Positions 14,430 through 62,132 of a DNA stretch of 64,000 nt are shown here, piece after piece. Numbering within the stretch: position 1 is the stretch's first letter; each line of letters starts with the position of its first letter. The DNA lies in NCBI GenBank assembly GCA_020692945.1, contig JAIMJY010000001.1, positions 1 through 64,000 on the forward strand. Reading direction: 5' to 3'. The DNA is from Caldisericum sp. Its GTDB lineage: Bacteria; Caldisericota; Caldisericia; Caldisericales; Caldisericaceae. The position numbers and the translations under genes are program-made. Under the pieces are notes generated by a model that saw nothing but the letters and a program-made list of their open reading frames with translations, did not search any database and was not told the DNA's origin.

Positions 14430-14460
14430 TTTTTCCTTTAATTTTCTCAGTTTTTTTAAT

Positions 14461-21500: not shown

Positions 21501-23430
21501 AGCCTCCTATATACTTATACCCTTTAAAGGCTTTTGCAAATTCTCTGAATTCAGGTGAAGCAAGTGTATCGATGAACAAACGCACACTTTTCTTTTGCAG
21601 CTCGCTTTTTAAAATCAACAAATCGTACTCTTCGTCTTTAACGCTCACGAAGTCCAAATCAAACATATCTGCAACATATCTTATACCCATGCCACAATCA
21701 GCACCCCCAAACTTAACTGCGTTGGCAATTCCAAGATGGGTATACTCTTCATACTCATACCCTGCAATATCCGATGCAGGTATTTTATTGCGTTTAAGTA
21801 AATAGTCAAACAATACTCTTGTACCAGACCCCTGTTGTCTGTTAACAAATTTAATTCCATTTCGTATAAGATCAGAAATGGACAAGATGTTTTTAGGATT
21901 ACCTCTCTTTAAAATCAAACCCTGGTCTCTTAGACTAAATTTAACAACAATAATATCTTTCGAAACGTACTTTTCTAAAAAAGGCTTATTGTAAGTGCCT
22001 GTCATGTCATCAAAGAGGTGCACAGATGAAATAGAGCACTCCCCTCTTTCTAAGGCAAGAAGCCCTCCAAAACTTCCAGTATTGATAACTCCAATCCTAA
22101 AATTAGTATTCCTTTTCGCAATGTAATCGACAAGCGCATCAAGCAGCGGGTCATTACTTCCGATAAAGAGCAGTTGGTTTTCAATATTTTGTTTGGACTC
22201 CAATAAATTTACTTTCACTTTAGACCCACTTTCGATACCTTCAACATGATTAGGAATAACAAAAATACCATCGGCATTGGTTACGCTTGTTAGTACTCCT
22301 GCGCCCTTCTTAAGTGGCACTGCAACTAATTTGCCACCGACATCGCCCAATCTCACCCTTATGTATTCCTCAACTCCAATCGAAGATGGAATAGGACGAA
22401 GAACAAAAGCCTCAACTTCCTCATTTGACCCTTTATCGTCAGTTAAGGTTCTAATTGCTTCCTCTAAAAATATTCTGGTATCCAGGTAGCAGGATACTGG
22501 AAATCCAGGCATTCCAATGAGAGGCTTATTATGAGAAACAGCGAGAACAAATGGCTTGCCTGGTTGAATAGAAAGTCCATGTATTAAAACTTCACCGACT
22601 ATTGCAAAAATTTTTGAAACAAGGTCTTTATTTCCCTTAGCCGAGCCTCCAACAACAACAATAAAATCGGCATTACTTACATTTGATAAAATAGCTTTTG
22701 AAATTAACTCTTCATTATTAGGAAGAATTTCCGTAATGTAAGCCGCTCCTCCTGCCCCCTCTACAATATTTTTAATCATATAGGAGTTGGTATCAACGAT
22801 ATCGGGAACTGCAAGCTTCTCAAAGGGGGCTTTTATTTCCTCTCCCGTGGGAATAATACAAACTACTGGCCTTCGTTTTACAAAAACACTTTTAACTCCA
22901 CTTGCTATCATTACGGCTATATGCTCTGCCCGAATCTTTTGGTTTGGATGAATTAAAATATCGCCAACCGAAAAATCGTCACCTATCATTCGTACATTCT
23001 TGTATGCTGAAACTGGAAATGGTACTTTTATTCCTTTGTAATCCGCGCTCTTCTTCAGCGGATTTATTGACTTCATTGATAACTCTACATCCTCTATCAT
23101 GACAACGCCGTCAAAACCTTTAGGAATTGGGTCTCCTGTATTAACGGGAATAGCATCATTTGACAAAAATAATTCCTTAGGGTTTTTGATGTTCGCATCG
23201 GCTGTTTTGGAAGAGTGAATTGCAAATCCATCAACCGCAGAGGCATTGTAAGCTGGGGAACAAAGTTTTGCAACAACAGGGTCAGCAACAACTCTCCCAA
23301 GAGATTCAAAGGTTGAAACTTCTTCGTTGCTCAGAGGATACGCTTTTACTGCTTCTTTAACAACTTTATTCCAAATTTCGAGAGCTTCGTCTAAAGTACG
23401 TTTTTTGAGGAAAATTTCTCTTTCTACCAT
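21481..23430 (-). CDS. moeA: MoeA-like molybdopterin molybdenum/tungsten transferase fused to a C-terminal periplasmic-binding-protein-like (molybdate/tungstate-binding-like) domain
   Basis: 649 aa. N-terminal MoeA domains (MoCF biosynthesis GSAKG-like block, VVVGG) and a PBP-like roughly 230 aa C-terminus. Contains an in-frame repeat-derived insert SINPLKKSADYKGIK. Confidence 0.8.
   Translation of the reverse strand: MVEREIFLKKRTLDEALEIWNKVVKEAVKAYPLSNEEVSTFESLGRVVADPVVAKLCSPAYNASAVDGFAIHSSKTADANIKNPKELFLSNDAIPVNTGDPIPKGFDGVVMIEDVELSMKSINPLKKSADYKGIKVPFPVSAYKNVRMIGDDFSVGDILIHPNQKIRAEHIAVMIASGVKSVFVKRRPVVCIIPTGEEIKAPFEKLAVPDIVDTNSYMIKNIVEGAGGAAYITEILPNNEELISKAILSNVSNADFIVVVGGSAKGNKDLVSKIFAIVGEVLIHGLSIQPGKPFVLAVSHNKPLIGMPGFPVSCYLDTRIFLEEAIRTLTDDKGSNEEVEAFVLRPIPSSIGVEEYIRVRLGDVGGKLVAVPLKKGAGVLTSVTNADGIFVIPNHVEGIESGSKVKVNLLESKQNIENQLLFIGSNDPLLDALVDYIAKRNTNFRIGVINTGSFGGLLALERGECSISSVHLFDDMTGTYNKPFLEKYVSKDIIVVKFSLRDQGLILKRGNPKNILSISDLIRNGIKFVNRQQGSGTRVLFDYLLKRNKIPASDIAGYEYEEYTHLGIANAVKFGGADCGMGIRYVADMFDLDFVSVKDEEYDLLILKSELQKKSVRLFIDTLASPEFREFAKAFKGYKYIGGFDEKKN
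23031..23068 (-). repeat. Dispersed hairpin repeat unit inserted in frame inside the moeA-PBP CDS
   Basis: Reverse complement reads AATCCGC-TGAAGAAGAGC-GCGGATT-ACAAAGGAA and is translated as INPLKKSADYKG inside a loop of the MoeA N-terminal domain. Confidence 0.8.
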
Positions 23431-24647: not shown

Positions 24648-25558
24648 GATAATAAATCCTCAATTACGTTTTCAATTTTTTGGTTAATTGAAAGGTCTGC
24701 CTTTGAAAAAATTGGAGCGTTTGGATCTGCATTAAAAGCAATTATATGCTTTGCATGAACTGCATCAATGTGCTGGATAGCACCAGAGATTCCAAAAGCA
24801 ATGTACAGTTCTGGATTAATAGATAGCCCGGTGTCACCCACTATCCGATTAGCATCGATCAGTCCTCTATCGCCAACAGGCCGTGTGCAGCAAATTTCAG
24901 CACCAATAGATGATGCAAATTCTTTTATCTTGGGGATCAACGATTCTTTGACTCCCCTTCCAACACCCACAACAACTTTAGATTCAATAAGTGGATTATT
25001 TTCCAGGCATTCGCTTGAAATACAATCGAGTGAATGAGTTTTAGTCACCTGAATGACTTCGCAAATTCCTTTGGAATCCGCACTCTTTTTCAGCGGACTT
25101 ATTTTTGATTTTGTTTCTTTGTAATTGTTGCCCTTTTTCAAACGATTATAAGGAAAGCATTTCTTGTCGTCCTTTAAAATTAGAAGCGCTGGCTTTTTTT
25201 GAGAGAAAACTTCTGCAACAAAATTTTCCCAGCCGTAAACAAGTCCAATAATTTTACCATCCTCAAACTTGATTTCTTTGCTGTGAGCAATAAGCCCGAG
25301 AGCATTCTTACCTGCAAAATAGGATGCAGTTTCTTTTACAACTGTTTCATCTGAAAAGATTATCGCGTCAAAATCCATAATCCCTGGTATATTCGAGATG
25401 AAATCTGTTCCAATGAGAGGGTCGTTTATAGCCAGGGAAGGAATAAAATCTGCACTACCTTCTTCACTTGAAAAGCTTGCAGAAAACACTTCGGGGAACA
25501 TTCCACGAAGCTTGGAAATGATACCGTTATCTTCTTTAAAAATTCCCAATATCTTCAT
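24623..25558 (-). CDS. etfA: Electron transfer flavoprotein alpha subunit (FixB-like)
   Basis: 311 aa with C-terminal FAD-binding domain motifs (YIAFGISGAIQHIDAVHAKHIIAFN). The interdomain linker carries two in-frame repeat units. Confidence 0.85.
   Translation of the reverse strand: MKILGIFKEDNGIISKLRGMFPEVFSASFSSEEGSADFIPSLAINDPLIGTDFISNIPGIMDFDAIIFSDETVVKETASYFAGKNALGLIAHSKEIKFEDGKIIGLVYGWENFVAEVFSQKKPALLILKDDKKCFPYNRLKKGNNYKETKSKISPLKKSADSKGICEVIQVTKTHSLDCISSECLENNPLIESKVVVGVGRGVKESLIPKIKEFASSIGAEICCTRPVGDRGLIDANRIVGDTGLSINPELYIAFGISGAIQHIDAVHAKHIIAFNADPNAPIFSKADLSINQKIENVIEDLLSWAKNSSR
25066..25150 (-). repeat. Two tandem dispersed-repeat units in frame within etfA
   Basis: Units AAGTCCGC-TGAAAAAGAGT-GCGGATT-CCAAAGGAA and AATCGTT-TGAAAAAGGGC-AACAATT-ACAAAGAAA, translated as NRLKKGNNYKETKSK-ISPLKKSADSKGI. 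Confidence 0.8.
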
Positions 25559-32953: not shown

Positions 32954-32987
32954 TAAATCACCTCTCTAAAAATAAAGTATTCTTTAT

Positions 32988-33177: not shown

Positions 33178-33201
33178 AAAATCTCTCCTACCGCAAGATA
33201 G

Positions 33202-34702: not shown

Positions 34703-34714
34703 GCCATCAATAAT

Positions 34715-35338: not shown

Positions 35339-35401
35339 CTTAAACCATAAAACTATTATGCACATGCAAAGAAATTTCATACCAAGTAAAAGGATTGAAA
35401 T

Positions 35402-35908: not shown

Positions 35909-36033
35909 TTGCTATTATAAAATGAAATTGATCGACTTTCCAATTATAATTTAAGAAAATATTGTGTTTTTATCTGAATATAGTTAAAATAAGATATCTG
36001 TTAAAATAAATGCATTAAGGGGTCCATAACAAA

Positions 36034-36363
36034 ATGAAAAAAGATAAAAAGTTTCAAGGCCAAGGAGTGCAAAAATGGAAACATCCGGGAGGAAAGTTAA
36101 GAGAACTGGGGGCAGACAAACTTTCTGATGCAGAGCTGTTGGCTATTCTTATTTCAACAGGCACGAAAAATAAGTCGGCAGAAGCAATAGCCAATGAACT
36201 TATTAGTAAATTTGGATCCTTTCGTGGCTTAGCGAATCAACCGCTTTCTAAGCTTCTTGAAATTAACGGACTCGGTGATGTCAAAATTATACGTATCGCT
36301 GCTACTTTTGAAATAGCGCGTAGAATTGCTAACGAAATAGTTAAAACTTATGAGCAAAAGTAA
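36034..36363 (+). CDS. RadC N-terminal domain-like helix-hairpin-helix protein lacking the JAB/MPN domain
   Basis: LSDAELLAILISTGTKNKSAEAIANELISKFGSFRGLANQPLSKLLEINGLGDVKIIRIAATFEIARR closely matches the RadC N-terminal HhH region. Its stop overlaps the start of the downstream RM gene by 14 nt. Confidence 0.7.
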   Translation: MKKDKKFQGQGVQKWKHPGGKLRELGADKLSDAELLAILISTGTKNKSAEAIANELISKFGSFRGLANQPLSKLLEINGLGDVKIIRIAATFEIARRIANEIVKTYEQK

Positions 36364-39300
36364 AAAATTAGGAAAGATTTCATCAGAAACAAAAACAACT
36401 ATTCCAAATCCTTTTGAGATATCGACTCACAAAACAGAAAGGTCAGGTGCTGCTGTCATTATGCACTGGATGAGAGATATTATAGAGGAGAAGAATATTG
36501 ATTTAGGTTTACCTGATGTTGAAACAGGTGGCAAGGATAGCCTCTTTCCAGATACAATAATTAAAAAAACAAGAATAAGTCATGATGTTTTATGTGTTAT
36601 GGAGTTTAAACCCCCTCACTGGGATCCTTTTAACTATGATGATCCAAAAGAACCAGCTCGGAAAAAAGCTACCAAAAGAAACGCAAAATACTTCGCTACC
36701 TCGAACTTTCGAGATTTGATTCTTTGGAGTACTGAAAAGGTTAATGCCAACAAACCAGAAGAAGAACAAATCGTTTCACGCTATCATTTGTCAGATATTT
36801 ACGACCTTGACATGCTTGAGGACAATAGATACAAGGTTCCTACTAAAAAAGAGCTTGAAAAGTTTTTGACTGATCTTTACGAGTTTTCTACTGGTACCAA
36901 GGTTGAGCCACTTTTGGCTGTTGATGAATTACTCATTTATCGTCTTCAGGAAAAAATTGGAAAACTCGCGTACTATTATAGAGAAATTATTTATGATAAG
37001 ACTCACAAGGATAAAGATTTTGCCGAAAAGCTCTCAAAGTGGTTTACGGAACAAGGTTGGAGTTTTTTCATAGAAGATGAAGATTGTTATAATCGCATAG
37101 CTCATCAAACAGCATATCTTTTAGCAAATAAAATTATCTTCTACAATGCTTTGCAATTAAAGCGTCCTGATAAGCTAAGTCCATTAAGCATTCCTGAAGA
37201 CCTTACTCATGGCAAGATATTAGAAGGTTTCCTACAGTCATATTTTAAGTCTGTGCTTGATATAGATTATGAAACAATTTATACAACTGACTTTATTGAT
37301 GAAATTGCTTTTCCTGATAGTAAAGAAGTTGTTGAAGAAATCAAGAGCTTGGTTAATATTCTAAAACAATATGACTTTTCAAGCTTAGGTTTCGATGTAA
37401 TTGGTAGAATATTTGAGCGTTTAATTCCAGCGGATGAGAGACATAACTTAGGGCAATATTTTACCAATCCAGATATCGTTGATTTGATACTTCAATTTTG
37501 CATAAAAAACGAAAGAGATAAAATTTTTGACCCTTCTTGCGGTGCAGGCACCTTCCTTGTGCGTGCTTATCAGTATAAAAAACTGATGAACCAGAGGTTG
37601 CAGCACGAGGAAATCTTAAACACTCTTTGGGGAAACGATATCGCCAAATTTCCAGCCCATCTTTCTACAATTAACCTTGCGATAAACGACCTTTCGGTAG
37701 AGAAGAATTATCCTAGAATCATGCAGAAAGACTTCTTTGACCTCTTAGCTTCGCCGGATGAAGGATTTCGTTTGCCAGAGGACGTGAGAAAAGTTCTGTT
37801 AAAAACAATGAGCAATGAGGAATTTGAAATTGTCCACCCTCGTTGGTTTGATGTAATTGTAGGAAATCCTCCTTACACGAGGCAAGAGGAGATTTCCGAG
37901 ATTTCTGGAGATGAAGCGTACAAGGGAAATTTAATTGACAAAGCACTGAGATATGGAAATAATAAAATAGCAGATATTTCAAAGAGAGCTGGTATCTATG
38001 CGTATTTCTTCGTCCATGGAACTAAATTTCTGAAAGATAGTGGGCGTTTTGGTTTTATTGTTTCAAATGCCTGGCTTGACGTTGAGTATGGGGCTGGACT
38101 CCAAGAATTCTTTCTTGAAAACTACAAAATCGTTGCTATTATTGAGTCCAAAGTAGAGCGATGGTTTAAGGATGCGGATATTAATACTGTAATTGTGATT
38201 CTTGAAAAATGCAAAGAAAAAGAAGAGCGAGACAATAATGTTGTTCGTTTTGTATATTTGCTTAAGACTCTTCGAAATTTTATCCCTCCAGCTCAAACAA
38301 TCTGGGAAAAACAAATTGGAAGAAAGCAGGCCATAGATAATTTAATTAAGACTATCCTTGCACACTCAGAACTTTATGAAAATGAAGAGCTCAGGATTTT
38401 TGCCAAGAAACAATCAGAGCTCTGGGACGAAGGGTTAGACCCTGAAGAGCAAAAATATGTTGGTTCAAAGTGGGGAAAATATTTAAGGGCACCAGAAATC
38501 TTTTTCAAAATTTTGGAGAAAGGAAAAGACAAATTAGTCCCACTGAAAAAAATTGCAGATGTACGACGAGGTTTTACAACCGGCGCTAATGAGTTTTTCT
38601 ATTTAACTGAAGAAGAAATAAAACGCCGCAAGATTGAGAAAGAATTTTGGATGCATCAAGAGGGAAGAGGCAACTGGGTGCCAAACTATATTATTAAAAG
38701 CCCAAGGGAGTGTAAATCAATCATTGTTAATCCTAAAGATTTGAAGTACCTAGTTCTAATGATTCACAAAGATAAGGAAGATTTGAAGGGCACTAATGTC
38801 TTAAAATACATTGAAGAAGGTGAACGAAATGGATTTCATAATAGGCCGACGTGTGCAAGCAGGGAAAGATGGTATGAACTAACAGAGTTTAAAAGTAATA
38901 TTGTATGCATGATGACAGTAAATAAAAGGCATATTTGGCTTGATAATAGAAATGAATTTTTTATTGACGCAAGATTATACGGTGCTAACATAAAAGACAA
39001 TAGATATAAAACAATTTTAGGCACCATGCTTAATTCTACTTTGTTTTGGTTATTTACAGAATTGTGGGGGAGAGTGAATTTAGGAGAAGGAGCTCTTGAC
39101 GTTAAGGTTTATGAATATGCTTCTATGCCAGTATTAAAATTTGATAATAGGTTAGAAGAATTATTTAAAAACGAGATTTACAAAAGACCTATTAATGATG
39201 TTTTTGATGAGCTTGGTGTCTCTTCCCCTGAAAAAGTCTCTCTTGACAAAGTTAAGCCCGACAGAAGAGAATTAGATAAGATTGTAATGGGAGATCTCCT

Positions 39301-39826
39301 TGGATTAACTGATGACGAGCAATTAGAGGTCTATCATTCGGTCGTGGATTTAGTAAAATCAAGAATTGAAAAATCAAAAAGTGTTGGAAAATCTCACAAA
39401 GTAAAAAAAGGCATAGATATAGATGCAATATTAGTGCTCATTATAGAAAAGATTGGCGATAAAAGTCTTAAGAAGTGGTATGAAGAAAAAATTCTATCAA
39501 GAAACGACCTGGAAACAAAAGAGCTTCCCGAGATAGGCAATAACTTAAAGATAGAAAAAGGGCTTTATGGTTGGAAAATCAAAGGTGAAAGAGGTACCTT
39601 GCAATGCACTTCTGAGGCTGAGGCAGAATATTTGAAAGTATGGATTGAAATAGGTGCCAAATCTATTGATATTCCAAAAGATGAAACATATTTATCAAAA
39701 GTTGCAGAAGAACTTAAAACTCTTAAGAAAGAAATAGGCGATATAATTGATTCATATCTTGGTTCAGTTTTAGATATTAAATTAAAATCGCAAATTCTAT
39801 ATCGAATTTGGCAAAGTATAAGTTAA
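36350..39826 (+). CDS. Type IIG/IIL restriction-modification fusion enzyme: N-terminal PD-(D/E)XK endonuclease, gamma-class N6-adenine DNA methyltransferase, C-terminal target-recognition region
   Basis: 1158 aa. Nuclease motif FPD-x18-EFK near the N-terminus. MTase motif I FDPSCGAGTFLV and motif IV VGNPPYT. Long C-terminal region typical of TRDs in MmeI/Eco57I-like enzymes. Confidence 0.8.
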   Translation: MSKSKKLGKISSETKTTIPNPFEISTHKTERSGAAVIMHWMRDIIEEKNIDLGLPDVETGGKDSLFPDTIIKKTRISHDVLCVMEFKPPHWDPFNYDDPKEPARKKATKRNAKYFATSNFRDLILWSTEKVNANKPEEEQIVSRYHLSDIYDLDMLEDNRYKVPTKKELEKFLTDLYEFSTGTKVEPLLAVDELLIYRLQEKIGKLAYYYREIIYDKTHKDKDFAEKLSKWFTEQGWSFFIEDEDCYNRIAHQTAYLLANKIIFYNALQLKRPDKLSPLSIPEDLTHGKILEGFLQSYFKSVLDIDYETIYTTDFIDEIAFPDSKEVVEEIKSLVNILKQYDFSSLGFDVIGRIFERLIPADERHNLGQYFTNPDIVDLILQFCIKNERDKIFDPSCGAGTFLVRAYQYKKLMNQRLQHEEILNTLWGNDIAKFPAHLSTINLAINDLSVEKNYPRIMQKDFFDLLASPDEGFRLPEDVRKVLLKTMSNEEFEIVHPRWFDVIVGNPPYTRQEEISEISGDEAYKGNLIDKALRYGNNKIADISKRAGIYAYFFVHGTKFLKDSGRFGFIVSNAWLDVEYGAGLQEFFLENYKIVAIIESKVERWFKDADINTVIVILEKCKEKEERDNNVVRFVYLLKTLRNFIPPAQTIWEKQIGRKQAIDNLIKTILAHSELYENEELRIFAKKQSELWDEGLDPEEQKYVGSKWGKYLRAPEIFFKILEKGKDKLVPLKKIADVRRGFTTGANEFFYLTEEEIKRRKIEKEFWMHQEGRGNWVPNYIIKSPRECKSIIVNPKDLKYLVLMIHKDKEDLKGTNVLKYIEEGERNGFHNRPTCASRERWYELTEFKSNIVCMMTVNKRHIWLDNRNEFFIDARLYGANIKDNRYKTILGTMLNSTLFWLFTELWGRVNLGEGALDVKVYEYASMPVLKFDNRLEELFKNEIYKRPINDVFDELGVSSPEKVSLDKVKPDRRELDKIVMGDLLGLTDDEQLEVYHSVVDLVKSRIEKSKSVGKSHKVKKGIDIDAILVLIIEKIGDKSLKKWYEEKILSRNDLETKELPEIGNNLKIEKGLYGWKIKGERGTLQCTSEAEAEYLKVWIEIGAKSIDIPKDETYLSKVAEELKTLKKEIGDIIDSYLGSVLDIKLKSQILYRIWQSIS

Positions 39827-39875
39827 TATTTTGAATATGAATGTTACTTAATTGTTTTGAAATGAATTTTGCTAT

Positions 39876-39903
39876 TTGATGTTTTCCTGCAATCTGTTAT
39901 AAT
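39876..39903 (+). promoter_or_regulatory. Sigma70-like promoter with extended -10 (TTGATG -35, 16 nt spacer, TGTTATAAT) upstream of the toxin-antitoxin operon
   Basis: Hexamers read directly. RBS AGGGAGG follows. The same TCTGTTATAAT box recurs at 219-232 and about 62388. Confidence 0.45.
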
Positions 39904-39924
39904 ATTTCAAAAGGGAGGTTAAGA

Positions 39925-40509
39925 ATGTATAAAATTGAAGAAATCATTGAGGCTCTCCTTTACTTTGCAGGTTCGCAAGACATTAAGACAAAAATAGTAA
40001 AAGCATGCTATCTTTTAGAGTCAGAATATTTTGATAAGACAGGCCAAAGACTTACTGACATTGAGTATAAATATCACCTTTACGGTCCTTATAGCGAAGC
40101 TATTATAAGTTCAATGATGAACGATAAAAATATTGCATATAGCCCTCAAACAAGCATGAATGGAAATGAGTACGATTTGTTCAAACTTAAAAAAACTTCT
40201 GTTATCGCTAAAATTGATTCATTGGCACTTTCCTTTATCGAGAAGTGGGCAAAGATAATGCAGCAAAAGACATATAACGAAATGTTAGAACTTGCATATA
40301 ATGATAAGAATTTTAAGAGAACTGAAAAAGGACAAATCATAAAGTTTGATTCAGATTTTCTCAAAAAGAAAGAGTTGTTAAAGAAAAGAGCAAAGGAAAA
40401 ATTCGGAAACCGTAAACTAACAAAAGAAGAAGCTGACGGCTTGAAAGAAGCAGGCAACGAAGACTTAATTCAATACTCAAGGAAGTTATTAAAAGAGTCA
40501 GGTAGATGA
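39925..40509 (+). CDS. Panacea-domain (DUF4065, SocA-like) antitoxin
   Basis: N-terminal LLYFAG ... YKYHLYGPYSEAI pattern typical of Panacea/DUF4065 proteins. 4 nt overlap with the downstream toxin gene. Confidence 0.7.
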   Translation: MYKIEEIIEALLYFAGSQDIKTKIVKACYLLESEYFDKTGQRLTDIEYKYHLYGPYSEAIISSMMNDKNIAYSPQTSMNGNEYDLFKLKKTSVIAKIDSLALSFIEKWAKIMQQKTYNEMLELAYNDKNFKRTEKGQIIKFDSDFLKKKELLKKRAKEKFGNRKLTKEEADGLKEAGNEDLIQYSRKLLKESGR

Positions 40510-40886
40510 AAGCGCGTGTTCACCCTAAACGAGGCTTTGTATATAGAATTATTCTTAATTATATAGATAGACCTGCAGAATCTAATGAAAAGCATATGGT
40601 CGTTGTTATCCAAAACAATGATATTCTAAAATGGTCAAGAGAAGTTAATGTCTTGGAAATAACAAGTAACCCGAGGGACATTAGTGCACCATATAACGTT
40701 TCTCTTCCAGCAAAAACTCTAACGAGCCAATATCAATCAACCGACAGCAAAATTAAATGCCATGTCCTTTATGGAGTCAAGATAGAAGATTTGCTTAACG
40801 GAGAGTATTGCGGAAAAATCCCAAGTGAAATTATGAAAGAAATTGACGATGCAATTATTTTTTCACTTGGATTGTCAGAAGATTAA
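40506..40886 (+). CDS. MazF/PemK-family type II toxin (endoribonuclease fold)
   Basis: 126 aa with the conserved pattern RGFVY ... HMVVVIQNND ... ITSN ... KCHVLYGVKIEDL ... GKIPSEIMKEIDDAIIFSLGL matching Kid/PemK/MazF. Confidence 0.7.
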   Translation: MKARVHPKRGFVYRIILNYIDRPAESNEKHMVVVIQNNDILKWSREVNVLEITSNPRDISAPYNVSLPAKTLTSQYQSTDSKIKCHVLYGVKIEDLLNGEYCGKIPSEIMKEIDDAIIFSLGLSED

Positions 40887-40906
40887 TAGTTCAGAAGATT
40901 AATAGT
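40875..40906 (+). repeat. Perfect tandem duplication of the 16-mer TCAGAAGATTAATAGT spanning the toxin stop codon
   Basis: Read directly: two identical 16-mers followed by a partial third (TCAGAATATAATAA). Confidence 0.6.
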
Positions 40907-41069
40907 TCAGAATATAATAAAGTTTTATTGTGTGGAGCAAATTATGGACGACCAGGAAAAACAAAAAATTGACGTTATAATGAAAGACTATGAAATACTA
41001 AAAACCTATTCTACTCCAGTCGGAAAAAAAGTCAAACAATTTGAATCAGACCTTTTGTTAAGTTTCATA

Positions 41070-41172
41070 AACCTGCTGAGAATGATCGTGGGTTCCAAAG
41101 GATTAAATCCACTGAAAAGGATCGTGGATGAATCCGATGAAAATGAGCTCGGATTTCAAAGGAGTGACAAAA
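41070..41172 (+). repeat. Three dispersed-repeat units forming the right border of the accessory island, upstream of tilS
   Basis: AACCTGC-TGAGAATGATC-GTGGGTT-CCAAAGGATTAA; ATCCAC-TGAAAAGGATC-GTGGAT; AATCCGA-TGAAAATGAGCT-CGGATTT-CAAAGGAGT. Confidence 0.8.
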
Positions 41173-50247: not shown

Positions 50248-51444
50248 TCACTGATATCTTAATGCTTCAACGGGATTCAATCTTGATGCCCTTCTTGCAG
50301 GGTAAACCCCAAAGAAAACACCAATGAGAAGTGAAACTAAAAACCCAACAACTATCGAAGTGGGAGTTATGTGAGTAGGTATTACGCTCTCAGGAACAAG
50401 TTTTGACAACGTAACGCCAAAGATTATCCCAACAACCCCGCCAAACGCTGAAATAAATGAAGCTTCTATCAAAAACTGAGTTAAAATATCCCTGTTTTTT
50501 GCTCCTACCGCTTTTCTTATCCCTATTTCCCTTGTTCTTTCGGCAACTGATGCAAGCATTATGTTCATTATACCAATGCCTCCAACAATCAATGCTATAG
50601 ACCCAATTGCGGTAAGCGCCACGGTAAACGTGTCAGTAACCTGTTTTGCTAACTGGAGATACTGTTGCTCGCTTCTTATAGTAAAATTTTCCATGCCGTG
50701 AAGCTCCATAAGCATCCTTTTAAGTCTTGCCCCGAACAACTCGATCGAGGTTGTTGGAGGTGCTTTAGCGTATACAACTTGAAGGCTCCTCTTGTTAATA
50801 ATTGCCTGCATTGAAGTTACCGGAACAAAAACTGTCTGGTCGAGGTTCATTTGCCCGAATGCACCCTGAGATTCAAGCACTCCAATTACCGTAAACTTTG
50901 TATTTAAGAGCTTTACTGAGTTGCCTAATACTTTGCCTGATTTAAATAACTGCTGGTATGTTTCGTAACCTAGTATGCAAATGTTTCTATAATTTGCTAC
51001 GTCTTCAGTATTAAAACCTCTTCCTAACTGCAACTTGTAGTTTGAAACAAGCAAAATATCCTCATTTGAGCCCACAACAGTCGTAAAAATCTCCGTATTG
51101 CCATATTTTATTGTAGATGTAGCAGTGAGCTCTGGAGCAATTTTAGCATCTGGGATTTTCTTCTTAAGGTACTTTACATCATCATATGTAAGAGGTTTCC
51201 TCAGAGCGCTTTCGCCAATTGCAGCACTCATTAGAGTTGAGCCTTTCCCTGGCAAAATCAAAACCACATCGGATCCAAGCGACTGAATGCTTGATAAAAT
51301 GCTGTTCTGAGCACCGTAGCCGAAAGAAGTTATAAGTATGAGAGAAGAAACGCCAACAATAACTCCAAGCATTGATAGAAATGTCCTCATTTTGTTAAGC
51401 TTCATGGAGGTAAAAGCCATTTTAAGAATTCTGATAATTTTCAT
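50248..51444 (-). CDS. ABC transporter permease, MacB/FtsX family
   Basis: 398 aa with N-terminal TM, periplasmic MacB_PCD-like domain and C-terminal FtsX 3-TM bundle. Confidence 0.85.
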   Translation of the reverse strand: MKIIRILKMAFTSMKLNKMRTFLSMLGVIVGVSSLILITSFGYGAQNSILSSIQSLGSDVVLILPGKGSTLMSAAIGESALRKPLTYDDVKYLKKKIPDAKIAPELTATSTIKYGNTEIFTTVVGSNEDILLVSNYKLQLGRGFNTEDVANYRNICILGYETYQQLFKSGKVLGNSVKLLNTKFTVIGVLESQGAFGQMNLDQTVFVPVTSMQAIINKRSLQVVYAKAPPTTSIELFGARLKRMLMELHGMENFTIRSEQQYLQLAKQVTDTFTVALTAIGSIALIVGGIGIMNIMLASVAERTREIGIRKAVGAKNRDILTQFLIEASFISAFGGVVGIIFGVTLSKLVPESVIPTHITPTSIVVGFLVSLLIGVFFGVYPARRASRLNPVEALRYQ

Positions 51445-51446
51445 GA

Positions 51447-52163
51447 TTATTCTAAGGCCTCCTCTTCAAAACTTGAGTTATGCTCGTCGTCTTCAATACG
51501 CCCATCTTTAACTTTTATGATTCTTTGAGTAAAGCTCGCAATAAATGGATCATGCGTTACAATGACTTCAGTGACGCCACGGCTTTTGCTGAGCTCACGA
51601 AAAACTTTTATTATTTCAAGTCCAGTTTTTGAATCCAGGTCTCCTGTAGGCTCATCTGCAAGGATTATCAACGGGTCGTTTATGAGAGCACGCACTATTG
51701 CAACTCGTTGCATCTCTCCTCCGGAAAGTTGGTTAGGTACATGCCTTACTCTATCTTTCAAACCTACACTATCAAGAAGTTCAAGTGCTTTTCTTTCTGT
51801 TGCTTTTACGGAAGCATTAGGATTATAAACCGCTGGAAGCATAACATTCTCAAGCACCGTAAGGTTCTGCAATAGGTTAAATGTTTGAAATACAAATCCA
51901 ATTTTCTTGTTTCGTATTTCTGCAAGTTTGTCATCGTTAAGTCTTGAAACATCTGCTCCTTCAAGAAAATATTTTCCGCTCGTTGGCTTATCAAGGCACC
52001 CAAGGAGATGCATTAGCGTGGATTTTCCTGAGCCAGAGGCTCCCATTATGGAAACAAGTTCACCTGGCTTGATATTTAAAGAAACTCCCCTGACAGCCTC
52101 AACTTTAACTCCGCTGAGAAAATAAGTTTTTACTAAGCTTTCGGTACTTATAATGTCATTCAT
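51447..52163 (-). CDS. ABC transporter ATP-binding protein (MacB/LolD-type)
   Basis: 238 aa with Walker A GASGSGKST, signature LSGGEMQR and Walker B ILADEPTG. Confidence 0.9.
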   Translation of the reverse strand: MNDIISTESLVKTYFLSGVKVEAVRGVSLNIKPGELVSIMGASGSGKSTLMHLLGCLDKPTSGKYFLEGADVSRLNDDKLAEIRNKKIGFVFQTFNLLQNLTVLENVMLPAVYNPNASVKATERKALELLDSVGLKDRVRHVPNQLSGGEMQRVAIVRALINDPLIILADEPTGDLDSKTGLEIIKVFRELSKSRGVTEVIVTHDPFIASFTQRIIKVKDGRIEDDEHNSSFEEEALE

Positions 52164-52167
52164 ACTT

Positions 52168-54045
52168 TCATTTTCCTTGCCCAGAGAAAATACTTCTATT
52201 TATTGCAGTAAACCCGGAAGAGGCAACCTCAGCAATTTTATCGCCTTCATTTAAACCTGAAACAATTTCAACAAATTCGTCTGATGAAACTCCTGTGACA
52301 ACTTCAACTCTTTCAAAAATCTTTTCATCAAGCGTTAAATAGACAAACTTTTTTCCATTTTCTTCGAGGATAGCGTCAATGGGTATGCCTATTGCGTTAT
52401 CCTTCTCTTGGACGGTAATGTCAATGTTGACACTCAAACCACTTTTTAGGGAAATATTCGATGAATTTATAGCAGTCTGCACTTTATATGCTTGAACTCC
52501 TTGATTTGTAACCGTAGAAACGAAAGAAATGGATTTAACGCTTCCATTGATACTCTGCTCTGGTAAGGCATCAAAAGAGTACTGAACAGATTGCCCTGGT
52601 TTTATCTTCACTGTGTCAATCTCGTCAGAATAGGCCTCTGCAAAAAAATGCATTGTATTACCAATTATACAGATCACCGCGCCAGGAGAAACAATATCCC
52701 CCTCGCTCGGTTTGACCATAAGAACCGTACCATCAAACGGAGCTTTTATCGTGAATTTACTAAGAGTGTCATTTGCAACTTGAAGGTTTGCTTTTGACTG
52801 CTCTACTTGAAGTTCAGCTTGTATAACCTTATCGTCTCCAATGTCAAACTGCAATTTTGCGTTTGAAAGTGTTGCCTCAGCCTGAGAAACGCTATCTGAG
52901 GCCTGTTCAACCTGCAAATGCCTAATTTCTATCGTATCATTGCTTGTAGAAGCATTCTTATTCACCATATCAAGATTAGCCTTTGCAACCTCAAGTTGCG
53001 ATTCTGCTAAGTGTACCTGGTTCTCGAGTTGAATCTTCTGGACTGACTTAGTATTTTGAGCTTTAACTGCCTGGTTGTAGTTTTCCTGGGCAATTTGAAG
53101 TGAATTTTTGGCTTGTTCTACCTGGTTTTCGGCAGTATTTATTTGGTCGTCAGACGCAGGACCATTGATTATTTTCATCTTTTCCAAACTATTCGTTGCT
53201 ATCGTAACATTACTTTTAGCGATTTCCACCTGAGATTCGTAGATCGTTATTTCTTCCTCTGGTGTTTTTGGGTTGTTGGCAGCTTCGTTTAGCTTTTCCT
53301 CAGCAATTTTTTCGTTCTCTTTTGCCTGGTTGAGTTGCTCATTTGCAGTGCTTATATCCTGAGCGGTTGTTAGAGATTCCTTCATTCTTTTTAGGCTGAG
53401 CTGAGCAATTGCAAGAGAAAGTTCAGCATTTTTTTCCTGAAGTTCTGCAATCTTAACAGATTCGGGAGACGTATCGGTTTGATCAAAGGACTCGTAGTTG
53501 AGCCTGGCATTTGAGAGATTTATTTCGGCTTGTTTTACAGATTCTTCTGCTTGAGTTAACTGGCTGGAATGATTATCCGTTTTCTGAGTAATTTCCAAAT
53601 TTTTCCGTGCAATGGCTAACGACTCATTTGCATTTTTTAGTCCAGCTTCTGCCTGCAAAACCGCTGCGTTAGTATTGGACTTTTTTGTTATGTTTAAACT
53701 CTCTAAAGCAAGATTGTAGTTAATCTGCGCAATTTGATAATTGGAAGATGCCTGCGTAGAATCAATATAAAGTATAACATCGCCTTTTTTTACAGAAGTT
53801 CCATCCTTTTTATATATCTTTGAAACCTTTCCCTGCACTTCCGAGTAAACAGTAATCTCAGGATCAGTTTTTAATGTCCCTGTCAAGCTCACAACGTTTT
53901 GTATGTCCATCCTACCTACAGTATAAATTCCAGTTTGTTGAGAAGATGAAGAACTGTTGCATCCATAAAAAACTACAGTGCCAACAATCAAAATGGCTAA
54001 CAACAGCAATGTTTTTACTCTTCTGGAATCTGCAATCTTTTTCAT
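52168..54045 (-). CDS. Periplasmic adaptor (HlyD/MacA-type membrane fusion protein) with an unusually long coiled-coil
   Basis: 625 aa with N-terminal TM or lipobox region, roughly 350 aa of heptad-rich Q/A/E/N sequence and C-terminal beta-barrel/MPD domains. Confidence 0.75.
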   Translation of the reverse strand: MKKIADSRRVKTLLLLAILIVGTVVFYGCNSSSSSQQTGIYTVGRMDIQNVVSLTGTLKTDPEITVYSEVQGKVSKIYKKDGTSVKKGDVILYIDSTQASSNYQIAQINYNLALESLNITKKSNTNAAVLQAEAGLKNANESLAIARKNLEITQKTDNHSSQLTQAEESVKQAEINLSNARLNYESFDQTDTSPESVKIAELQEKNAELSLAIAQLSLKRMKESLTTAQDISTANEQLNQAKENEKIAEEKLNEAANNPKTPEEEITIYESQVEIAKSNVTIATNSLEKMKIINGPASDDQINTAENQVEQAKNSLQIAQENYNQAVKAQNTKSVQKIQLENQVHLAESQLEVAKANLDMVNKNASTSNDTIEIRHLQVEQASDSVSQAEATLSNAKLQFDIGDDKVIQAELQVEQSKANLQVANDTLSKFTIKAPFDGTVLMVKPSEGDIVSPGAVICIIGNTMHFFAEAYSDEIDTVKIKPGQSVQYSFDALPEQSINGSVKSISFVSTVTNQGVQAYKVQTAINSSNISLKSGLSVNIDITVQEKDNAIGIPIDAILEENGKKFVYLTLDEKIFERVEVVTGVSSDEFVEIVSGLNEGDKIAEVASSGFTAINRSIFSGQGK

Positions 54046-54135
54046 TTGCTCTTTACCTCCCTGTTATAATTAAAATCAGTTCTTTTAATCCCCTGGAATC
54101 CACTGATAAGGATCGTGGCTTTACTCTCTTCTTAC

Positions 54136-57435: not shown

Positions 57436-60400
57436 TCACGGGTATTTCTCGCCGTAATGCTTTGCAAGCATGAAAAAATCGATGCTGCTTATAATGCCGT
57501 CAAAATTAAGGTCACAGGAGGCGTTGTATCCTGTATCACCCTTTTTTTTCAAGAAGCTTGCTTTGAGAATGTTCAAGTCAAGATTATTGATTGCGTTATC
57601 ATTGTTCAAATCAAAGAAATGTGAATAATCAGAAATATTATAATACAGTTGTGGAAGGACAAAACCTAAAAGCTGAGAACTCTGAACAGAAGAAACGCCA
57701 ACAAAACCAGACCCATTGTCCAACGCTTTCAGTTTTAATGAAGCTATCACGCTCTTGTTTGTGAATGAGCTAGTTTCGGATGTCAAAGAAATTTTAACTA
57801 CCCCGTTCTGGATATCGGAGGTAAAATTTATGTCATCTGCCAGGCTTTTCCCTTTCTGACATTCGCTGACCGCAAAGTGGTACGGGTCGAAATTGAAGTT
57901 AAAGTTAAGGCTCCCCGCCAGTTTTAAAGAATCAACGTATACGTCAAGCCAAAATTCATTTCCGTTCTTCAATAAAAGCGTAAAATTGTTTTGAGGAACA
58001 ATGTATATGGTGTTGGAAGGAGACTGTGATACAGTAAATGTACCACTTGAGGAAGAAGTAACTTCTGTTGGCAAGACAATCTTTGCACCTTCGTTAACGG
58101 TTGCTTCTATGTACTCTACTTTATAGTAATAGGTACCGTTGTCGTACTTGAAATCTTGCGATAAATCCATTAGAGAGAGGTTTGCGGAATAATCGCCAAC
58201 GTAAATAGGGGCTTGGTCAAATATTGTATCAATCAACTTGCCCGAAAAATCATAAACATCAACCTTTACCTCCTCAGCAACGTTTCCGTTAAAAGTGGAA
58301 TTGTCATCAGACATGCTTTGTCCTATGCCAACCGTAAACTGTACTACGAGGTTGTTTTGAGGAGTCAAACCGGTGCCTGATATCTTAACGTTGTTTAGTA
58401 CAGGCTGGATTGAGGCATTGGCAATGTAGACAAAAGGAATGTGTAAATTTATTGAGCTTGAGTCTTTGAGGTAAATATATCCGTAGGCCTCCGACGACTC
58501 TTTCAAAGCAGAAAAATTAGCAGTGAAAGTAGCAGTGCCGTTTACTGGCACACTAACAATAAAAGGCAGAGTAATTGAAATTTTGTCATTTGAAACCATT
58601 TGATAAGAAGTAAAGAAAGTTTTTGCATTGCTTGATAAGTTAGTCACAGTAAACGTTACTGACTTAGTTAAATCACCGTTACCAAAAATCACTGAGGATG
58701 GTTTAATGAAATAATTTGAATTGATAGCATTTAATGCATTTATTCTGCCCGCTCCTTGCATTAATGGAGAAAAAGGAAGCCCGGAGTACGGGTTGATGAG
58801 TACGTCAGAGGAATTCATCAATAAAGCCTTTGCATCATCAGGGCTGATGTTCGGCCTCCACTGCTTTAGCAAGGCAGAAACGCCTGCAACTACTGGAGAA
58901 GCCATTGAAGTGCCACTCATTACGCCAACTTTATCTGCCGGAAGCGTTGAACTAACATTCACTCCAGGAGCTACCAAATCAGGTTTGAAAAACAAATCTG
59001 AAGTTGGTCCGTCAGAGGAGAAATCAGCGATCCGTCCGAGGCCATATTTATTCTGAATGTATATACCTAAAGATAGATTCTCCTTTAGTGTTTGCCCGTC
59101 AGTGAAAGAAACAAATAGAAACGGTATGAACCCAGTTGCTTGAGGGTTACTTTCAGAAGATAGTTGTATACTGGGGATACCACTAACATTGTTATATACT
59201 ATTACTCCGATTGCTCCTGCGCTCTTAGCGTTGAGATCTTTATCACCAAAATATATCTTACCTCGTTCAATGAAGGCAATTTTACCTTTAACGTCTTTCC
59301 CTTGAAAGTCACTTGGCTCTCCAAGACCGCAGTAGACCATATCATAATTTCCATCATTAAAAAATGGAGATTCTGGAGGGTAATTAGCAAGAATTTGCTT
59401 ATTACCAGAGGTTATAACTCCTGTGATGCTATCATCGGTTGCCCCGACTCCGATAGCTTTGTCCACAGAAGCAGGGGAGGAGAGCGGAAATTCCACTGAA
59501 TCAGAGCGCGAGCCCTTATTCCCTGCAGCAGCCACAACAACTACCCCGCTGCCAACCGCATTTCTTACGGCTAAAGACTGAGGGTCGTCTCCAAAAGCCT
59601 GCCCTCCAACCGTACCAATAGATATGTTAATGATGTTACATTTATCCTTAACTGCTTGTTCGATGCCTTGAATTATTGTCGAAGTAGAGGTAGAATTATC
59701 GTTACCCGAAAATACCTTATAAGCTCTTATTTTTGCATCAGGAGCAATGCCATCGACAGAACCTGCTATTATGCCAGCCACATGTGTACCATGGCCGTCG
59801 GAATCTTTTGGATCAGCATCGTCATCTGCAAAATCATAACCTCCGATCACTTTAGAGTTTGGAAAATTGCCTCCTCCAAGCTCTTTGTCAGTGTAATCCA
59901 CACCGGTGTCGACAATACCAACTACAATGCCTTTTCCTGTGATATAGTTATTGGAAGAATCTTTCTTTTTGTTCACGACATCTGATTGTATAACTTTTGT
60001 GAGAGTAGTCCTCTCAAGATAAACTGGATTATCTTCAAAGATACCGCTAACATCTTTAAAATTGGCAATGCCTTTGATATCAGTGCCTTTGACCTTGCAA
60101 GCAACAGCATTTACGGTGTAGGAAAATGAAAATCTTGTTTCCCCACCAAGTGAAGAAACTAAATCTGAAAACTTTTCGTGGAAACTTTGGATTTGTGCTT
60201 CATAGGAGTCCGCTTCATTCCTGTTTACAAATGACAGCAGCTTATAAGCAAAGCTTTTTCTGTACTCTAAAACTGGTGGTTTGTTGAACACTACAATAAC
60301 TTGTTTAAATTCATTTGAATAAAAGTCAAATTTTCCGAAAAATTTTGCACTTATTCTTTCATAATCCACGATCTCTATCAGTGGATTTACTCTCCCGTAC

Positions 60401-60465
60401 GATGACGGAAGTGAGCTCATTAGAAATAATATGGTTAGCATTAAAGCTACAACAACCCTTTTCAT
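57436..60465 (-). CDS. Subtilisin-like (S8) serine protease with PA/fibronectin-like domains and a C-terminal dockerin-type module. The pro-region carries an in-frame dispersed-repeat unit.
   Basis: 1009 aa. Signal peptide. Catalytic triad contexts VGIVDTGVD, HGTHVAGII and GTSMASPVVAG. C-terminal duplicated calcium-binding loops DLNNDNAINNLDLNIL and DLNFDGIISSIDFFML resemble a type I dockerin. Confidence 0.85.
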   Translation of the reverse strand: MKRVVVALMLTILFLMSSLPSSYGRVNPLIEIVDYERISAKFFGKFDFYSNEFKQVIVVFNKPPVLEYRKSFAYKLLSFVNRNEADSYEAQIQSFHEKFSDLVSSLGGETRFSFSYTVNAVACKVKGTDIKGIANFKDVSGIFEDNPVYLERTTLTKVIQSDVVNKKKDSSNNYITGKGIVVGIVDTGVDYTDKELGGGNFPNSKVIGGYDFADDDADPKDSDGHGTHVAGIIAGSVDGIAPDAKIRAYKVFSGNDNSTSTSTIIQGIEQAVKDKCNIINISIGTVGGQAFGDDPQSLAVRNAVGSGVVVVAAAGNKGSRSDSVEFPLSSPASVDKAIGVGATDDSITGVITSGNKQILANYPPESPFFNDGNYDMVYCGLGEPSDFQGKDVKGKIAFIERGKIYFGDKDLNAKSAGAIGVIVYNNVSGIPSIQLSSESNPQATGFIPFLFVSFTDGQTLKENLSLGIYIQNKYGLGRIADFSSDGPTSDLFFKPDLVAPGVNVSSTLPADKVGVMSGTSMASPVVAGVSALLKQWRPNISPDDAKALLMNSSDVLINPYSGLPFSPLMQGAGRINALNAINSNYFIKPSSVIFGNGDLTKSVTFTVTNLSSNAKTFFTSYQMVSNDKISITLPFIVSVPVNGTATFTANFSALKESSEAYGYIYLKDSSSINLHIPFVYIANASIQPVLNNVKISGTGLTPQNNLVVQFTVGIGQSMSDDNSTFNGNVAEEVKVDVYDFSGKLIDTIFDQAPIYVGDYSANLSLMDLSQDFKYDNGTYYYKVEYIEATVNEGAKIVLPTEVTSSSSGTFTVSQSPSNTIYIVPQNNFTLLLKNGNEFWLDVYVDSLKLAGSLNFNFNFDPYHFAVSECQKGKSLADDINFTSDIQNGVVKISLTSETSSFTNKSVIASLKLKALDNGSGFVGVSSVQSSQLLGFVLPQLYYNISDYSHFFDLNNDNAINNLDLNILKASFLKKKGDTGYNASCDLNFDGIISSIDFFMLAKHYGEKYP
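60363..60392 (-). repeat. Dispersed-repeat unit in frame in the S8 protease, just after the signal peptide
   Basis: Reverse complement AATCCAC-TGATAGAGATC-GTGGATT, translated VNPLIEIVDYE in the same reading frame as the moeA and etfA copies. Confidence 0.7.
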
Positions 60466-60484
60466 TGCGTCCTCCTAACTTTTA

Positions 60485-60580
60485 TTCTTCTGTAACCCGA
60501 GATCATTTTCATCGGATTTATCTATGCACTTCTTTCCAGCGGATTTACTCCTCTGTATCCGCACTTCTTACCAGAGGATA
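60485..60580 (-). repeat. Two degenerate dispersed-repeat units in the divergent promoter region between the S8 protease and the HAD hydrolase genes
   Basis: Reverse complement AATCCGA-TGAAAATGATC-TCGGGTT-ACAGAAGAA and a second partial unit with the CTCCTCTGTA linker. Confidence 0.6.
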
Positions 60581-60628
60581 TATTTTACACACTATTGACT
60601 GAAATTAAAATAGTTTTATAAATAAATC

Positions 60629-61270
60629 ATGAAATTTGATTTAATTATTTTTGATTTTGACGGTACTTTATTTGACACGAAAGCGGATATTACAGCATCT
60701 ATTAACTTTGCTTTAAAGCAGTGCAATGTACCTCCTGCTTCTCCAGCGTTGGTTTGGAGGTTCACGGGAGATGGGACTCCAGCCCTTGTTAAGAGAATTT
60801 TGGGAGAAAAAAACAAGGACTTTTTCGAGATTGTTCTGAAAACGTCTTTAGATTACTATGAAGCACATTCTGCTGATTTTGCTAAACCAATTGGTGATAT
60901 AGAGTGGTTCCTTGAGCATTATAAAAATAAAACAAAGACGATTCTCTCGAACAAATATAAATCATTGATAGACAACATAATCCATAAATTTGGCTTTGAA
61001 AAATATTTCAACGCTTCCTTCGGAAGGGACAGCTTTGCAAAAAGCAAGCCCGACCCGTTACCGCTCATTGAAATAATGAGCATGTTTAGCGTAGAAAGAT
61101 ACCAAACGCTTTATATAGGAGATAGCGTTAACGACGTTCTAATTGCAAAAAACGCAGATGTTAAATGCTTTATCATTCCATCAGGAGCATCTAATGAAAT
61201 TGAGATCGAAAAATTGAAACCTGATCTCTTGTTCAGAAATTACAGAGAGCTTGAAAATATTATCGAATAG
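60629..61270 (+). CDS. HAD-superfamily hydrolase (phosphoglycolate phosphatase-like)
   Basis: 213 aa with motif I DFDGTLFDT and C-terminal GDSVNDV motif. Confidence 0.85.
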   Translation: MKFDLIIFDFDGTLFDTKADITASINFALKQCNVPPASPALVWRFTGDGTPALVKRILGEKNKDFFEIVLKTSLDYYEAHSADFAKPIGDIEWFLEHYKNKTKTILSNKYKSLIDNIIHKFGFEKYFNASFGRDSFAKSKPDPLPLIEIMSMFSVERYQTLYIGDSVNDVLIAKNADVKCFIIPSGASNEIEIEKLKPDLLFRNYRELENIIE

Positions 61271-61783: not shown

Positions 61784-62132
61784 TGGTGGAGGCGGCGGGA
61801 GTTGAACCCGCGTCCGAGTAAGTAACCCATACCGACGACTACAGGCTTAGTCGATCATTGTTTTTCTGTCTCCGCACCCGAGCGACAGGGTTTGGACACA
61901 TATCCTGAATTATACTTTGCAACATAGGCTCAGGCAACCTACACTGCAAGACCTGCATTCCTACGTTTTGAACGTCCTACAGGTGGAGACTGCCCAAAAC
62001 GTTAGCTGCCTATGCAGCTAATGCGTAATTATAATCGGCGTTTATATTTTTTGGTGGATGTTTAAAGAGGCCAACCACCGTCCTCTGCCTGCTCCGGTAT
62101 GCTCCACTTATCCGTCGAGCCCCAGCGCCCCC
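61784..62132 (-). ncRNA. ssrA: tmRNA (transfer-messenger RNA)
   Basis: 5' GGGGGCGCUGGGGCUCGACGG and 3' tRNA-like end GGACGCGGGUUCAACUCCCGCCGCCUCCACCA on the minus strand. Internal tag reading frame ...(N)ADYNYALAA-stop. Candidate promoter TTGTAA-16-TATAAT just upstream (about 62152-62180). Confidence 0.85.

Follow-up and report, generated by a model that had tools for sequence, protein, structure and literature searches.

A hairpin repeat of Caldisericum inserted in frame at the signal-peptide/propeptide junction of a secreted S8 protease

The DNA analysed here (hereafter, the window) comprises 64,000 nt (positions 1 to 64,000) of contig JAIMJY010000001.1 from the Caldisericum sp. assembly GCA_020692945.1. 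It carries a family of 36-nt hairpin repeats, one copy of which is embedded in the gene of a secreted S8 protease, where it contributes codons N27-I38 (NPLIEIVDYERI). The copy is translated in the pre-pro-protein and corresponds to a lineage-specific insertion, filled in the window and empty in a relative with the same gene order. The repeat family is likely to be a proliferating, non-autonomous element comparable to repetitive extragenic palindromes (REPs) or transposable elements of the miniature inverted-repeat type (MITEs), with the in-frame insertion being tolerated by its host gene.

The in-gene unit and its host protein

The protease is encoded by an open reading frame (ORF) of 1009 aa that starts with MKRVVVALMLTILFLMSSLPSSYGRVNPLIEIVDYERISAKFF, divided as MKRVVVALMLTILFLMSSLPSSYG and RVNPLIEIVDYERI. 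Its nearest matches in the database, 987-999 aa in length, are S8 peptidases from Caldisericota. Pfam scans placed a Peptidase_S8 domain, which holds a PA insert, at residues 177-553 and a type I dockerin (Dockerin_1) at the C-terminus. In order, the protein comprises a signal peptide, an I9-like propeptide, the S8 domain with its PA insert, beta-rich domains and the dockerin. By inspection, the signal peptide is predicted to be cleaved after SYG. The DNA for V26-I38 reads (GT)A AAT CCA CTG ATA GAG ATC GTG GAT TAT GAA AGA ATA and includes a hairpin whose pattern, AATCCAC-N11-GTGGATT, occurs once in the window, whereas 100 shuffles gave an expectation of 0.00. Folded as RNA, the unit has a calculated energy of -9.5 kcal/mol (z -3.7). 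Coordinates of this and other features are collected in Table 1.

The original prediction for this stretch had placed the repeat DNA and its peptide inside the translated gene and directly after the signal peptide, and both were recovered there, on the minus strand. Its loop variant TGATAGAGATC is likewise genuine, being a normal variant of the TGATAAGGATC subfamily that also occurs at 54097 and in loci L016 and L020. Since the orthologues share both the start codon and the signal peptide, the unit is translated; the equivalent Shine-Dalgarno sequence of the syntenic relative described below is GAAGGAGG.

In an alignment of the protease N-terminus from 44 orthologues, NPLIEIVDYERI appears as an exact insertion of 12 residues that no sequence contains other than the query and protein P0001 (99% identical), so that the comparison with orthologous proteases identifies the unit as a lineage-specific addition. 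The closest protein without the insertion (P0002, 62% identity) is encoded on contig L001 (19 kb) of a metagenome-assembled genome (MAG), in which the gene order of HAD hydrolase, protease and NHL-repeat protein is the same as in the window. At the protein level L001 reads Y-G-K-R-N-V-S-Y-V-G-N-F-D, as compared to Y-G-R-V-(12 aa)-S-A-K-F-F-G-K-F-D in the window, and its DNA has an exact 36-nt gap where the protease copy sits. No repeat copies were found in the 41 kb made up by L001 and a second contig of the same MAG, L028 (22 kb), whereas copies are numerous in the window regions that match these contigs. Identical filled sites are carried by two MAGs from the same species as the window. The copy is flanked by TAA on both sides (AGAG-TAA-ATCC...AGAA-TAA-GTGC), which may be a duplicated target site (TAA or AA) or may belong to the element's own ends, the empty site being too diverged to tell the two apart.

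An AlphaFold2 model of the protease, calculated from 35 sequences, has a mean predicted local distance difference test score (pLDDT) of 85.5. It comprises a helix at residues 2-17, followed by residues 18-40 with pLDDT <50; a propeptide-like beta-alpha-beta fold begins at residue 53, and a second stretch of low confidence (residues 147-152) precedes the catalytic domain. In this model the insertion is located within a disordered linker, two residues past the predicted signal-peptidase site. The placement in the pro-region made by the original prediction therefore stands in that the insertion opens the pro-protein, but it lies ahead of the folded, I9-like pro-domain and not within it. The propeptides of S8 proteases (subtilases) are normally removed autocatalytically, and the mature protease should therefore not carry the insertion; we infer that these residues are discarded together with the propeptide. 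The proposed effect of the element on the N-terminus would accordingly hold for the pre-pro-protein, whereas the N-terminus of the mature enzyme is most likely unchanged.

The peptide added by the protease copy differs in charge from what the family, with its basic consensus (NPLIRIVDYKGI), would typically supply. When full-length distinct copies are translated conceptually in the in-gene frame, the net charge is +1 to +4 in 47 of 48, and -2 in the protease copy alone. Relative to the subfamily sequence NPLIRIVDYKGL, R has changed to E and K to E within the loop and tail of the protease copy, and all seven of its differences from the subfamily consensus fall outside the stem. Positive charges just past a signal peptide impair Sec-dependent export. 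The acidic outlier suggests, from this single locus, an adaptation or filtering of the inserted peptide for export.

Table 1. Location of the repeat units and associated features
Feature	Position	Strand	Evidence or remark
Secreted S8 protease gene	57436..60465	-	Pfam, Caldisericota orthologues, AlphaFold2 model
In-gene 36-nt unit	60353..60388	-	Covariance model 46.7 bits, E 2e-8
In-gene hairpin AATCCAC-N11-GTGGATT, perfect 7-bp stem, loop TGATAGAGATC	60363..60387	-	Pattern search
Signal-peptide coding region (M1-G24), predicted	60394..60465	-	n/h/c architecture conserved in all orthologues
Shine-Dalgarno AGGAGG, 5 nt upstream of ATG 60465	60471..60476	-	Sequence
Intact upstream unit, sense	60484..60519	-	50.8 bits, E 2.9e-9; absent in L001
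Upstream unit truncated at 3' end (AAATCCGCTGGAAAGAAGTGCATAGAT)	60520..60546	-	Sequence, direct-repeat family D5; absent in L001
Degenerate upstream unit, directly downstream of TAAAAT box	60547..60581	-	15.1 bits, E 0.28; absent in L001
Conserved block, ~45 nt, beside divergent HAD-hydrolase gene	60582..60628	.	Alignment with L001
MoeA copy, peptide INPLKKSADYKG	23030..23065	-	Same frame as protease copy
ETF-alpha copy, peptide ISPLKKSADSKG	25065..25100	-	Same frame as protease copy
Decayed second ETF-alpha unit	25113-25148	-	Peptide PYNRLKKGNNYKET still resembles unit peptide; stem lost
HlyD-family start copy	54017..54052	-	Unit CTG changed to ATG
TAA-stop copies	Window 17922-17924; L012 4736 and 6063; L027 1790; L009 4594

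The repeat family

The consensus of the 36-nt unit is AAATCCGCTGAAAAAGAGTGCGGATTACAAAGGAGT, followed by AA(A), and its 5' flank is not conserved. Positions 2-8 of each unit pair with 20-26 to form a 7-bp stem, which closes an 11-nt loop (TGAAAAAGAGT) rich in purines; the tail (ACAAAGGAGT), likewise purine-rich, runs into AAA. The GGA in the tail resembles CsrA-type binding sites, a likeness on which no claim of binding is based. The consensus of 49 copies shows the stem flanks as nA...(stem)...ACAAAGGAnTAAA. The only inverted repeat of the unit is its internal stem, and nothing at the 5' end is an inverted counterpart of the conserved 3' tail. An internal 18+18 symmetry can also be read from the sequence (arm, purine-rich loop, complementary arm, purine-rich spacer), so that an alternative hairpin is possible in tandem arrays.

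A consensus scan together with a covariance model built from 16 units identified 16 strong copies in the window (39-54 bits) and none in shuffled sequence; several additional copies are truncated or decayed. The stem is maintained through compensatory substitution. In the window copies 92.9% of stem cells are paired, with changes on both sides in 14 cases versus 5.4 in shuffles, and in 39 distinct copies from other genomes the corresponding values are 93.8% and 50 versus 18. Arrays are mostly direct, with units arranged head-to-tail at a spacing of 36 nt (242/278/350, 41069/41107/41130 and 60484-60581), and inverted neighbouring units are a minority (305, 17959 and 54097). Tandem Repeats Finder did not report these arrays, as the units are too diverged, nor did it return any spaced array. 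A CRISPR array was considered and rejected, given that units abut without spacers or stand singly.

A search of the whole window against Rfam at the gathering threshold returned only transfer-messenger RNA (tmRNA) and no family matching the unit, and a permissive search of 60300-60660 gave no match at E up to 1. The tmRNA gene itself (RF00023, 174.9 bits) is located at 61784-62132 on the minus strand.

Units upstream of the protease gene

Repeats had also been reported upstream of the protease gene, as two units in the promoter region. Units are indeed present there, from 60484 to 60581, but they number three and are contiguous. The spacer between the HAD hydrolase and protease genes measures 66 nt in L001 versus 163 nt in the window. 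In L001 the conserved block beside the HAD gene runs straight from TGCTAAAATAT into TGAAGGAGG-N9-ATG, whereas in the window approximately 97 nt of repeats, corresponding to a gap in L001, are intercalated between the block and the Shine-Dalgarno site. The block is nearly identical in the relative even though the flanking proteins are only ~62% identical, which suggests strong constraint, probably as a promoter or operator region that the two genes share.

A consensus promoter scan placed a plus-strand promoter-like site (TTTACA-16-TAAAAT) at 60584-60611, on the side of the HAD gene, and no minus-strand promoter for the protease. On the minus strand a TAAAAT box was read by eye; if it serves as a -10 box, the upstream units form the 5' end of the leader. 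These units would thus probably belong to the 5' leader rather than to the promoter region in which they had been placed, as they are inserted between the promoter-like block and the Shine-Dalgarno site. The predicted structure of the leader RNA is barely more stable than that of shuffles (z -1.8).

Copies within and at the ends of other genes

A reading frame common to the protease copy and the other intragenic copies, as originally proposed, is confirmed: unit position 1 is always a third codon position, in MoeA (23030), in ETF-alpha (25065), at the HlyD start (54017) and in the long DXS ORF (14458). The consensus is open in four of its six frames, and the use of one frame in all four copies judged to be translated is notable, albeit in a small sample.

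In MoeA the unit adds 12 aa that are missing from 30 orthologues and from the homologue of known structure (PDB code: 1xi8). The two closest MoeA relatives, P0122 and P0123, have a 25-aa insertion exactly at the repeat site (window 22990-23110). When this insertion was compared with the unit as a possible decayed repeat, the DNA similarity was no better than for shuffled sequence (25.5 versus 23.6 +/- 4.9). The MoeA site may be an insertion hot spot or may hold a fully decayed older copy. The ETF-alpha protein of the window is 25 aa longer at the repeat site than that of the syntenic relative, and a second, decayed unit lies there. The loss of the stem from this second unit indicates that translated copies can lose the hairpin, unlike the protease copy.

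The HlyD-family gene (52168..54045) has a start built from the repeat: its ATG (54045) and first ~10 codons (MKKIADSRRV) derive from the unit, and the tail of the preceding unit supplies the ribosome-binding site GGGAGG (54056-54061). The HlyD/ABC/FtsX cluster to which it belongs (50248-54045) is missing at the syntenic place in L001. For DXS, on the minus strand, the long ORF begins at a GTG (14555), but residue 49 is the first of the Pfam domain, and M43 (ATG 14429) is accompanied by an AAAGGA site. The long ORF is probably over-extended, with M43 as the true start and the repeat upstream of it. The repeat at 14458-14493 would then be intergenic in an ispA-dxs operon.

Copies also end genes, which some units adjoin very closely. 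In five of the eight copies that start with T, the TAA at positions 1-3 of the unit terminates a long upstream ORF of 188-596 aa (Table 1). The pattern may reflect a TAA or AA target preference.

Distribution of the family across genomes and around genes

A degenerate unit pattern was used to search a collection of species-representative genomes, in which 24 loci were found, all but one from Caldisericum or Caldisericaceae; in total about 0.3 Mb of Caldisericota DNA was examined. The sole locus outside Caldisericota is on a contig labelled as archaeal. This locus, L007, has a good repeat copy at 86-121; its 4.6-kb contig, which had been binned as 'archaeon isolate MAG1', is probably a mis-binned Caldisericota or mobile-element contig. 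The same pattern had no matches among viral contigs, which thus give no sign of a phage origin. In the related loci the covariance model identified 42 copies, almost all intergenic and in both orientations. Twelve of the 16 window copies and essentially all of the 42 elsewhere lie outside long ORFs, and some are downstream of genes or between convergent genes.

Within 200 nt upstream of gene starts, sense units outnumber antisense units by 21 to 5 (p 0.002), or by 16 to 4 when arrays are counted. This bias may point to a role at the RNA level, or equally to selection against antisense copies, which would be disfavoured because their CTCCTTT would pair with ribosome-binding sites.

A mobilizing enzyme was sought by Pfam scans of 39 window ORFs. 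No transposase was found among these, although a RAYT (REP-associated tyrosine transposase) is a single-copy gene and, with ~0.3 Mb seen, its absence is uninformative. The small ORFs that adjoin copies in other loci, inspected by eye, include no transposase and look spurious. A search of the literature library returned no paper that pairs Caldisericum with 'repetitive', and among the matches listed for Caldisericum exile and its genome none is, by title and abstract, about genomic repeats. The family appears to be undescribed.

Several further observations concern the surroundings of the arrays. A low-GC (0.33-0.36) accessory block at 33150-41060, between an FTCD-like gene and tilS, is bracketed by repeat arrays at 32986-33147 and 41055-41165. 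It contains hypothetical genes, a Clp-protease-like gene, a gene with a RadC-like N-terminal domain, a restriction-methylase of Eco57I/MmeI type (1158 aa; 36350-39826) and a SocA/MazF toxin-antitoxin pair (39925-40886). Between the genes for EF-P and a response regulator, the window has an SPFH/Band-7 gene (17154-17924) followed by an array of mixed orientation (17908-18049); the same site in L028 consists merely of a 176-nt spacer. At 20351-21500 on the minus strand, MFS_1 is matched by each of two ORFs that overlap (248 and 157 aa), where the relative has one MFS gene of 381 aa, and this split may be due to a frameshift, a pseudogene or a sequencing error.

Comparison with known repeat systems

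The family resembles the REP/BIME and REPIN-RAYT systems (PMC2817692, PMC3733652), in which a 20-40 nt imperfect palindrome with a conserved unpaired extension on one side is present in many copies, with abundance that is lineage-specific and with copies mostly intergenic, often clustered and at times intragenic. With a unit of 36 nt, a 7-bp stem and 16 strong, mainly extragenic copies in 64 kb, it corresponds to a REP in the broad sense. REPs inside genes, some of them adding residues, are documented, and GTAG REPs supply TAG stop codons to upstream ORFs (PMC3733652), in parallel with the TAA supplied here. The tag of the GTAG/CGTC superfamilies is, however, absent from the unit on either strand, the unpaired head on the opposite strand being TTTACTCCTTTGT. 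REPINs are mainly inverted dimers and REPs are usually found downstream of genes, whereas the Caldisericum arrays run mainly head-to-tail, their period being strictly 36 nt, and many copies are upstream. The phyla in which REPs have been described do not include Caldisericota.

The Rickettsia palindromic elements (RPEs) are palindromic repeats found in frame in unrelated housekeeping genes, with the added hydrophilic peptide placed where the protein tolerates it, and their insertions were recognized by comparison with orthologues lacking them (PMC10969869, PMC3733652). Orthologues likewise demonstrate in-frame insertions for the protease, MoeA and ETF-alpha, but the resemblance is functional only. 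RPEs are ~100-150 bp (30-50 aa), specific to Rickettsia and unrelated in sequence to the 36-nt (12-aa) unit, and in the Caldisericum family, unlike RPEs, intragenic copies are a small minority.

MITEs such as ERIC, Correia/NEMIS, BOX/RUP and Chunjie are non-autonomous, AT-rich and mostly intergenic repeats with stem-loop transcripts; now and then a copy lies in frame inside a gene, and they can change how neighbouring genes are expressed (PMC10969869). They are usually 50-500 bp long with terminal inverted repeats and target-site duplications, whereas the present unit is much shorter, shows no clear terminal inverted repeats and consists of an asymmetric hairpin plus tail.

The ends of IS200/IS605 elements (as in IS608) have a subterminal hairpin, then ~10-13 conserved nt up to the element boundary, with the stem recognized structurally. 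The hairpin-plus-tail of the Caldisericum unit is alike in layout, but the units occur solo or in tandem without an internal gene, and no TnpA or TnpB gene is associated with them in the DNA examined. The family is not a member of the tagged REPs, RPEs or CRISPR arrays, and probably not of the classical MITEs.

Interpretation

A likely explanation of these observations is a REP/MITE-type element that proliferates non-autonomously, since presence and absence differ between syntenic genomes and since the copies are dispersed, arrayed, truncated, decayed and mainly intergenic, with a hairpin conserved as structure. The repeat would have spread within the Caldisericaceae lineage, mostly between genes. 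Insertion into a gene would be survivable where extra residues are harmless, because the unit amounts to 12 codons and one sense frame is stop-free and hydrophilic. One copy would have inserted into the gene of the protease, two codons past the predicted signal-peptidase site and in an unstructured linker; its residues would be translated in the pre-pro-protein and discarded with the propeptide, making the insertion near neutral. Following insertion, the positive charges typical of the family may have been lost through the R-to-E and K-to-E changes, with the stem left intact. Three more units would have inserted upstream, lengthening the mRNA leader by ~97 nt and adding one to two hairpins. 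An HUH/RAYT-like single-strand transposase could conceivably mobilize the units, by analogy with REPs and with IS200/IS605 ends, although none was found.

Several points weigh against such a history. Mobility is deduced from presence and absence only, with no transposase in the window or beside the related copies, and it is uncertain exactly where the unit landed and how old the insertion is, given that the nearest genome without it is only 62% identical in this protein. Cleavage of the signal peptide and removal of the propeptide are predictions. In addition, the perfectly kept stem and the upstream sense bias could mean that the hairpin functions as RNA. On that account, the units would primarily be functional RNA, with leader and intragenic hairpins that are bound by an RNA-binding protein or RNase and kept by selection, and with roles in mRNA stability, in tuning of translation initiation, or as an in-gene ribosome pause that aids export. 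The compensatory changes in the stem, the conserved loop and tail sequence and the location of all seven differences of the in-gene copy outside the stem are consistent with this proposal, as are the orientation bias near gene starts and the position of the upstream units behind a -10-like box, where the transcript may begin with them. However, a relative with the same gene order and promoter block does without copies in 41 kb, both orientations occur, including downstream of genes and between convergent genes, selection against antisense CTCCTTT near ribosome-binding sites can account for the bias, and Rfam has no match for the unit. We consider a primarily RNA-level role rather unlikely. More doubtful still is a version in which the unit is a domesticated, Caldisericaceae-wide module recognized by a dedicated RNA- or single-stranded-DNA-binding protein, with the protease hairpin, retained two codons past the signal peptide, acting as a translational pause that couples synthesis to export. 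If true, units in the sense direction would be a source of hairpins for leaders, of AAGGAG motifs like the Shine-Dalgarno site, of codons for start and stop, and of short linker peptides.

Two other explanations concern the protein. The 12 residues could be a selected motif for sorting, chaperone docking or propeptide processing, with the DNA repeat a by-product of its recruitment, as might be suggested by the single frame used in all translated copies and by the N-P-L...D-Y conserved among them. This is very improbable, given that the large majority of copies are non-coding, that six of 48 have stops in that frame, and that the hosts are unrelated (cytoplasmic MoeA and ETF-alpha, and a secreted protease); moreover, conservation tracks base pairing of the stem and not codons, the segment is predicted to be disordered, and orthologues function without it. 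Alternatively, the start of the protease might be mis-called, such that translation begins downstream and all of the repeats are non-coding leader. An error of this kind is probably real for other N-terminal copies, such as that of DXS. For the protease it is scarcely credible and the least probable of the alternatives: ATG 60465 is preceded by AGGAGG, MKR and the hydrophobic segment behind it line up with the signal peptide in each of the 43 orthologues, which share the same N-terminus, and a secreted, dockerin-bearing protease needs a signal peptide. The sequence downstream of the unit contains no Met, no second hydrophobic segment and no alternative start with a signal peptide of its own, the outcome that would have contradicted the original prediction.

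Understood as a REP/MITE-type element, the family introduces no new principle, as intragenic REPs and RPEs are established precedents. It does, however, provide a very clean example of filled and empty sites for a short palindromic repeat becoming part of a protein, and does so at the junction of signal peptide and propeptide. The charge reversal suggests that the peptide was reshaped for the constraints of export while the DNA hairpin was kept. For genome annotation, a repeat family without an Rfam entry, from the poorly studied phylum Caldisericota, explains odd 12-residue insertions, N-terminal ORF extensions, and stop codons and a start codon made by the repeat itself.

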